A stretch of DNA of 64,000 nucleotides, from the NCBI RefSeq assembly GCF_988243305.1, contig NZ_OZ547136.1. The stretch is one strand, 5' to 3'. Position numbers and translations under genes: made by a program. Within the stretch, counting starts at the first letter, position 1, and each line of letters begins with the position of its first letter. Below, in pieces: positions 63,686 to 63,848 of the stretch. Under the pieces are notes generated by a model, which had not been told where the DNA came from, ran no database searches, and saw only the letters and a list, made by a program, of their open reading frames with translations.

Positions 63686-63848
63686 TCTGGCATTTGCACT
63701 GAATGCCGGATGCGGCGTAAACGCCTTATCCGGCCTACGATTCCCATTATTTCAATGGATTACAGCAAAGTAGGCCAGATAAGACGCACCAGCGTCGCAT
63801 CTGGCATTTGCACTGAATGCCAGATGCGGCGTAAACGTCTTATACAGC
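63686..63848. repeat. REP element cluster
   Basis: Two near-identical direct copies of ctggcatttgcactgaatgcc[g/a]gatgcggcgtaaacg[c/t]cttat... between rcsB and rcsC. Confidence 0.6.

Follow-up and report, generated by a model that had tools for sequence, protein, structure and literature searches.

A BIME-2-type REP array between rcsB and rcsC, orthologous to REP162 of Escherichia coli K-12

The rcsB/rcsC spacer and its surroundings

The DNA analyzed was a stretch of 64,000 nucleotides from contig NZ_OZ547136.1 (NCBI RefSeq assembly GCF_988243305.1), referred to below as the window. It was collinear with positions 2,251,178-2,317,178 of Escherichia coli K-12 MG1655, from yeiI to rcsC, at an identity of about 97.7%, and the breaks in the alignment with MG1655 were intergenic repeats and one IS5. 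When 5,426 complete E. coli genomes were compared, the closest was 98.9% identical over 8 kb (55000-63000). The strain thus belongs to the E. coli group, possibly to Shigella or to a thinly sampled clade of E. coli. Rfam matches above the gathering score were obtained, as expected for this region, for the MicF sRNA (59938-60031, plus strand, 116.8 bits), for a tRNA at the proL position (34983-35056, plus strand) and for the leader of ribosomal protein L25, which precedes rplY (31242-31267, plus strand). In addition, yejO was an intact open reading frame of 863 aa in the window (35161-37752, minus strand); K-12 yejO is a pseudogene split by IS5, and this IS5 was absent from the window at the junction 37686-37689.

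The convergent genes rcsB and rcsC were separated by 166 nt between their stop codons (63683-63848), and the corresponding K-12 spacer measures 199 nt. The features of the spacer and its borders were as follows.

63680-63682, plus strand: stop codon of rcsB, TAA
63685-63691, minus strand: 7-nt remnant of a Z2 REP, ATCTGGC, found by alignment with MG1655, LR-64-1 and strain War
63692-63704: short (S-type) linker of 13 nt, ATTTGCACTGAAT, first copy
63705-63738, plus strand: canonical Y REP, GCCGGATGCGGCGTAAACGCCTTATCCGGCCTAC, reading GCC...CTAC on the plus strand and GTAG on the minus strand
63739-63769: linker of 31 nt that joins the Y and Z2 REPs at their CTAC/GTAG ends
63770-63805, minus strand: canonical Z2 REP, GCCAGATGCGACGCTGGTGCGTCTTATCTGGCCTAC as read on its own strand, with GTAG at 63770-63773 on the plus strand
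63806-63818: S-type linker of 13 nt, ATTTGCACTGAAT, second copy
63819-63852, plus strand: degraded Y REP, GCCAGATGCGGCGTAAACGTCTTATACAGCCTAC, with its CTAC tail over the rcsC stop codon
63849-63851, minus strand: stop codon of rcsC, TAG, after a translated C-terminus of ...RKSRES

The three REP units were thus 34, 36 and 34 nt long, within the 30-40 nt of the imperfect REP palindrome, with their feet at 63735-63738 (CTAC), 63770-63773 (GTAG) and 63849-63852 (CTAC). All of them were extragenic except for the CTAC tail of the third. Repeat finding on the plus strand returned a direct repeat of 70 nt (63684-63753 and 63798-63867), 90% identical and spaced 114 nt apart, which agrees with the two near-identical direct copies that the original prediction had placed here. 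The period of 114 nt was the sum of one short linker, one Y, the long linker and one Z2 (13 + 34 + 31 + 36), and the second copy of the 70-nt repeat entered the rcsC coding sequence by 15 nt. The spacer also held several inverted repeats of 14-17 nt. The last codons of rcsB, AAGTCCGGCAGATAA (63661-63675), resembled the GTAG-side half of the Z2 REP, AAGTAGGCCAGATAA (63768-63782), with 80% identity over 15 nt; this likeness is probably due to chance.

Identification and classification of the repeat units

REP and BIME elements have been known since the 1980s. The window was examined with a half-site scan, in which both conserved REP half-sites were searched for and 100 dinucleotide-preserving shuffles served as the control. 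Five complete REPs were detected in the 64 kb, compared with a mean of 0.29 and a maximum of 2 in the shuffles. Both half-sites were free of mismatches in the Y at 63705-63738 and in the Z2 at 63770-63805, and the Y at 63819-63852 carried two mismatches in its tail. An IUPAC pattern with a fixed 5-nt loop matched no REP, because REP loops vary in length.

A covariance model, R1, was built with the REP stem from an alignment of 20 non-identical K-12 REPs (4.23-4.35 Mb). They came from a set of 32 REPs, including those of REP325, malE-malF and lamB-malM, in two regions of K-12 that lie about 2 Mb from the locus. Unfiltered search of the window with R1 gave seven matches with E < 0.01, and the REPs predicted between rcsB and rcsC were recovered as three positive units.

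63705-63738, plus strand: Y REP, 55.9 bits, E = 3.4e-10
63770-63805, minus strand: Z2 REP, 45.6 bits, E = 6e-8
63823-63852, plus strand: decayed Y REP, 23.0 bits, E = 0.0055 (46.2 bits for the K-12 copy)

The sequence of the Y REP at 63705-63738 recurs unchanged in the Y units of REP325 in K-12. Furthermore, the curated Rfam family naRNA4 (RF02564), which represents one Y and Z2 unit of REP325, matched positions 63773-63849 on the minus strand, which is the rcsC-sense strand, with 64.3 bits (E = 4.6e-9) against a gathering score of 59.5. Matches of the same family below the threshold were found at 51816-51898 (55 bits), 63666-63735 and 31662-31696. Of the 5,426 E. coli genomes, 5,425 had matches to the REP part of the query, and the median number of matching sites per genome was 27-29. 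No repeat_region features were given for REP-bearing spacers in the RefSeq records examined. The elements between rcsB and rcsC are dispersed, high-copy REPs of gene 3' ends. Formal REP alignment had been set as the test that could refute the original prediction, and the flagged element passed it in R1, in the naRNA4 gathering score and in its genome-wide recurrence. The description of these repeats as ordinary for E. coli was likewise borne out by their recurrence throughout the genomes and by the K-12 ortholog, which has already been tabulated as REP162.

The REP types y, z1 and z2 and the conserved GTAG foot (CTAC on the other strand) were defined by Ton-Hoang et al. (2012, PMC3333891). According to the same study, BIME-2 is composed of z2 and y with a short S linker, occurs in tandem copies with a copy number that varies between strains, and has linkers that differ from locus to locus (PMC3333891). 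The rcsB/rcsC spacer holds a BIME-2-type array, with Y and Z2 alternating in orientation and the 13-nt linker present twice. By BLAST, the 31-nt linker was locus-specific: 4,436 of 5,426 genomes had it, and the median number of sites per genome was 1. This fits the statement that BIME-2 linkers differ between loci.

Table 16 of the preprint by Harris et al. (2026, bioRxiv 10.64898/2026.03.23.713779) gives the name REP162 to the K-12 element between rcsB and rcsC. The window element shared with REP162 the locus, the flanking genes, the Y and Z2 units, both linkers and a last Y that overlaps the stop codon of rcsC. It differed from REP162, which has four REPs in the order Z2-Y-Z2-Y in its 199-nt spacer, in that the rcsB-proximal Z2 was reduced to 7 nt in the 166-nt spacer of the window, and the last Y of the window had three extra substitutions that break the stem. 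Compared with the K-12 BIME-2 elements REP325 (yjdM-yjdN) and REP161 (eco-mqo), the array was similar in its alternating Y and Z2, its linker of about 13 nt, its tandem arrangement and its variable copy number. However, REP325 and REP161 have six units each, whereas the window had about 1.5 at rcsB/rcsC, and the longer linker of the window was locus-specific and contained 7-15 nt copied from the 3' end of rcsC. The rcsB/rcsC element is therefore already known, as a REP/BIME-2 element catalogued in K-12 as REP162. Its value is that of a negative control: REP repeats of this kind should be masked, and they should be taken neither for novel repeats nor, despite the naRNA4 match, for a small-RNA gene.

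A REPtron is recognized by a tnpAREP/RAYT gene that REPs flank, and the K-12 gene map had no such gene in the orthologous region, with which the window was collinear except for REP and IS5 indels. Judged from this gene map, the rcsB/rcsC REPs are ordinary dispersed copies with no REPtron.

Copy-number alleles, folding and likely role

The alleles of the spacer were surveyed with both coding flanks joined as the query, in 60 genomes taken evenly down the ranking. About 80% of this sample had the four REPs of the K-12 arrangement and a span of 551 bp, and about 20% had two REPs, that is, one Y/Z2 pair, and a span of about 437 bp. Alignment of three alleles showed that the two-REP and four-REP forms differed by exactly one 114-nt unit. 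About 18% of the genomes were without the 31-nt linker, which agrees with the share of the two-REP form. The allele of the window was the four-REP form minus 33 bp: the rcsB-proximal Z2 was lost and three REPs remained. These 33 bp were present in K-12 and in all of the best E. coli matches. The deletion junction had no single-piece match in the 5,426 complete E. coli genomes, and an exact search of 100,044 species-representative genomes also returned no match. This strain-specific copy-number allele is the only feature of the element that is even mildly unusual.

The 7-15 nt immediately past the rcsC stop codon had a copy in the repeat unit (CTACGATTCCCATTATTTC compared with CTACGATTCCCGCGATTTC). 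Since sequence adjacent to rcsC was copied within the unit, the change in copy number was local, arising by recombination between repeats and not by independent insertion. A simple tandem duplication of the two-REP allele was considered as the source of the 114-nt unit, and it accounted for the unit only in part, as 24 nt of the long linker had no counterpart there.

The Y at 63705-63738 and the Z2 at 63770-63805 folded into hairpins of -21.3 and -22.1 kcal/mol, respectively. Both had the classic REP shape with one internal stem mismatch, ((((((((.((((....)))).)))))))). The third REP (63819-63852) had lost three consecutive basal stem pairs, and its fold alone gave -5.3 kcal/mol (z = -0.21). 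For the whole spacer, the z value was -8.5 on the plus strand and -6.5 on the minus strand. In addition to the REP hairpins, the Z2 remnant, the first short linker and the 5' arm of the Y formed a 12-bp hairpin (63684-63712, -16.3 kcal/mol) that started 1 nt past the rcsB stop codon. An inter-REP hairpin with 16-nt arms (63793-63808 and 63816-63831, 94% complementary) flanked the second 13-nt linker, and the 31-nt linker (63739-63769) held a small hairpin of 5 bp. The stems of the rcsB/rcsC hairpins were not followed by T-runs (U-tracts). No canonical intrinsic terminator was found in 63500-64000, where one weak pattern match on the minus strand was the only hit.

Taken as a whole, the element is best explained, with a probability of about 0.93, as a BIME-2-type array orthologous to REP162, with a proposed role as a transcription stop and decay barrier at gene 3' ends and an origin shaped by recombination. 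In this explanation, REPs would have been seeded and reshuffled by a REP-associated tyrosine transposase; TnpAREP cleaves and recombines REP DNA in vitro (PMC3333891). Recombination between the 114-nt direct repeats would then have altered the copy number and given the two-REP and four-REP alleles found in the species, and the three-REP allele of the window would have been produced by the 33-bp deletion.

Both strands of the array would be transcribed into the 3' ends of the converging mRNAs, and the REPs are predicted to fold into stable G+C-rich hairpins on each. These hairpins may stop transcription in both directions, in a partly factor-dependent manner, and may also block 3'-to-5' exonucleases; in this way they would set the 3' ends of the rcsDB and rcsC transcripts and shield them from decay. 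Harris et al. reported that the presence of REPs between two convergent genes is correlated with increased expression of the pair, and that 78 REPs lie within mapped bidirectional terminators (bioRxiv 10.64898/2026.03.23.713779). Moreover, both Z2 hairpins of K-12 REP162 (2316832-2316874 and 2316942-2316985) are given as bidirectional terminators in Table 16 of that preprint. The Z2 of the window at 63770-63805 was the ortholog of the hairpin at 2316942-2316985, and the other mapped terminator hairpin was deleted in the window. Because the rcsB-proximal Z2, a mapped terminator in K-12, was deleted, function on the rcsB side may differ in this strain.

The hairpins lying 1 nt past the rcsB stop codon and over the rcsC stop codon may also dampen translation termination. 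REPs located no more than 15 nt from a stop codon lower translation according to Liang et al. (2015), as cited in PMC12306157. As DNA, the Y units would be preferred gyrase sites. Gyrase cleavage is enriched in BIME-2, with y REPs preferred, in a study whose text does not name rcsB/rcsC (PMC6379681), and by analogy with the BIME-2 class, gyrase may bind and cleave the rcsB/rcsC array.

Some results limit the effect that should be expected. Genome-wide, REP-associated genes did not have longer mRNA half-lives, and the effects of REPs were strongly context-dependent (bioRxiv 10.64898/2026.03.23.713779); a measurable effect at rcsB/rcsC is therefore not guaranteed. Also counting against the proposed role are the single Y/Z2 pair with which about 20% of E. 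coli genomes manage at this junction and the decayed third REP of the window, which formed no fold alone.

A further reading would give the three-REP allele a consequence of its own, by altering 3'-end formation or translation termination at rcsB/rcsC and hence the RcsB:RcsC stoichiometry and the expression of the Rcs phosphorelay. It was prompted by the loss of the mapped Z2 terminator, by the 12-bp hairpin 1 nt past the rcsB stop and by the decay of the rcsC-proximal Y. We consider this effect unlikely. If true, it would be a natural case in which a two-component system for envelope stress is tuned by variation in REP copy number.

The naRNA4 match raised the question of a discrete small RNA of that family, processed from the rcsC 3' UTR, that would bind HU, bridge cruciform DNA and condense the nucleoid. 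The element resembled naRNA4 (CssrE) in its two hairpins, Y and Z2, over the full 77 positions of the model, whose linker is likewise 13 nt, and the score at 63773-63849 exceeded the gathering score. Two-hairpin Y and Z2 RNAs of REP325 were reported to bind HU and condense DNA, with structure rather than sequence being what counts (Qian et al. 2015, PMC4550694). However, the family is itself a BIME-2 unit, so that the match restates the REP pair. The Y hairpin of the matched unit was decayed in the window, with unpaired basal positions that set it apart from naRNA4, and no promoter-like site was seen in 63500-64000. In contradiction to the nucleoid-condensation model, REP325 and naRNA4 also had no measurable effect on chromosome compaction in newer work, and REP-REP contacts were undetected (Harris et al. 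2026, bioRxiv 10.64898/2026.03.23.713779). A small RNA of this kind is accordingly improbable at rcsB/rcsC.

The geometry of the long linker was compared with that of BIME-1/RIP elements, in which a central linker would recruit IHF to bend the DNA between two REPs. The Y and Z2 of the window met at their CTAC/GTAG ends across 31 nt, as in BIME-1, and resembled elements such as K-12 REP160 (narP-ccmH), where a linker of about 31-35 nt with an IHF-core-like sequence separates two facing REPs. In the middle of the linker, TTTCAATGGATTA (63750-63762) was one mismatch from the IHF core WATCAANNNNTTR, and the true BIME-1 linker of K-12 at narP/ccmH likewise held only one-mismatch sites. Nevertheless, a chance core with one mismatch is to be expected in about every kb of the window. 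The combination that defines BIME-1/RIP, namely Y and Z1, a conserved L linker and an IHF site, was not found at rcsB/rcsC, where the partner of Y was Z2 and not Z1, and the linker was single-copy per genome and unlike the conserved, dispersed L motif of the K-12 BIME-1. Given the single-copy linker, the Z2 partner and the weak match to the IHF core, this reading was rejected as a very doubtful one. The position between convergent genes, the stable hairpins, the 114-nt tandem structure and the locus-specific 31-nt linker might suggest that the hairpins have nothing to do with REPs and are ordinary Rho-independent terminators of this locus or a novel tandem repeat confined to it. This reading is next to impossible: the stems lacked T-tracts, which disposed of intrinsic terminators, and the dozens of copies per genome, the identity of the Y with K-12 REP units 2 Mb away and the strong, independent R1 scores refuted the rest.

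REPs at other junctions of the window

The content of REPs varies strongly between close strains, and by R1 the window had 7 in total, compared with 22 in the orthologous K-12 region. The other junctions with REPs or REP-derived sequences in the window were the following.

1619-1656, plus strand: yeiI/nupX, one decayed Z2-like REP with the tail TCAT in place of CTAC, 22.0 bits in R1, E = 0.009
4811-4846, plus strand: yeiL/psuT, REP-derived palindrome of 36 nt with a perfect 10-bp basal stem, -21.1 kcal/mol
31659-31692, minus strand: rplY/yejK, single canonical Y REP, which follows the intrinsic terminator of rplY, 45.8 bits in R1
51813-51846, minus strand: eco/mqo, Y REP, 50.3 bits in R1
51867-51901, plus strand: eco/mqo, truncated Z2 REP, 23.7 bits in R1
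51902-51932: eco/mqo, hairpin on the mqo side after the Z2

The original prediction had listed REP palindromes at all of these junctions, with a cluster at eco/mqo, and its claims fared differently. At rplY/yejK the claim was confirmed by the canonical Y, which was identical to the K-12 copy. A REP was also present at yeiI/nupX, as a single decayed copy; K-12 has two REPs there, a canonical Z2 and a Z1. For eco/mqo, the presence of REPs was correct, in the form of one Y/Z2 pair, whereas the cluster was not: the spacer of the window (51789-51932) contained one BIME-2 unit, compared with the six tandem units of REP161 in K-12, and the cluster of 12 REPs exists only in K-12. At yeiL/psuT the claim failed, as the palindrome scored 11.8 bits in R1 (E = 1.6), having lost the CTAC tail and lacking a stem mismatch; its K-12 ortholog is a REP with 38.9 bits in R1. 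The earlier list of junctions looks like knowledge of K-12 applied to a strain in which REPs are far less numerous. Since REPs differ so much from strain to strain, a list drawn from K-12 is not transferable to another strain without a check.

Some minor observations were made at these junctions. In the K-12 eco/mqo array, the linker between the units is a repeat of the sequence that directly follows the stop codon of eco, and this repeat points to a local tandem amplification of REP161. The genes nupX (1617-2935) and psuT (4839-6123) were paralogs with a DNA identity of about 79%. Their alignment continued into the 3' flank that carries the REP, and a ...AATGACACTCAAGCTAAACCAATAAAGAACCC-like sequence was common to the two spacers. 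The REP downstream of nupX and psuT may predate the duplication or may have been homogenized. Finally, the narP/ccmH spacer (38720-38753), which the original prediction did not name, was cleanly empty and had one hairpin, AGCCCGATGGCATCACCATCGGGCCTCTTTTT; in K-12 the same spacer carries the BIME-1 element REP160, composed of Z1, an L linker of 35 nt and Y, and flanked by two copies of the terminator hairpin.
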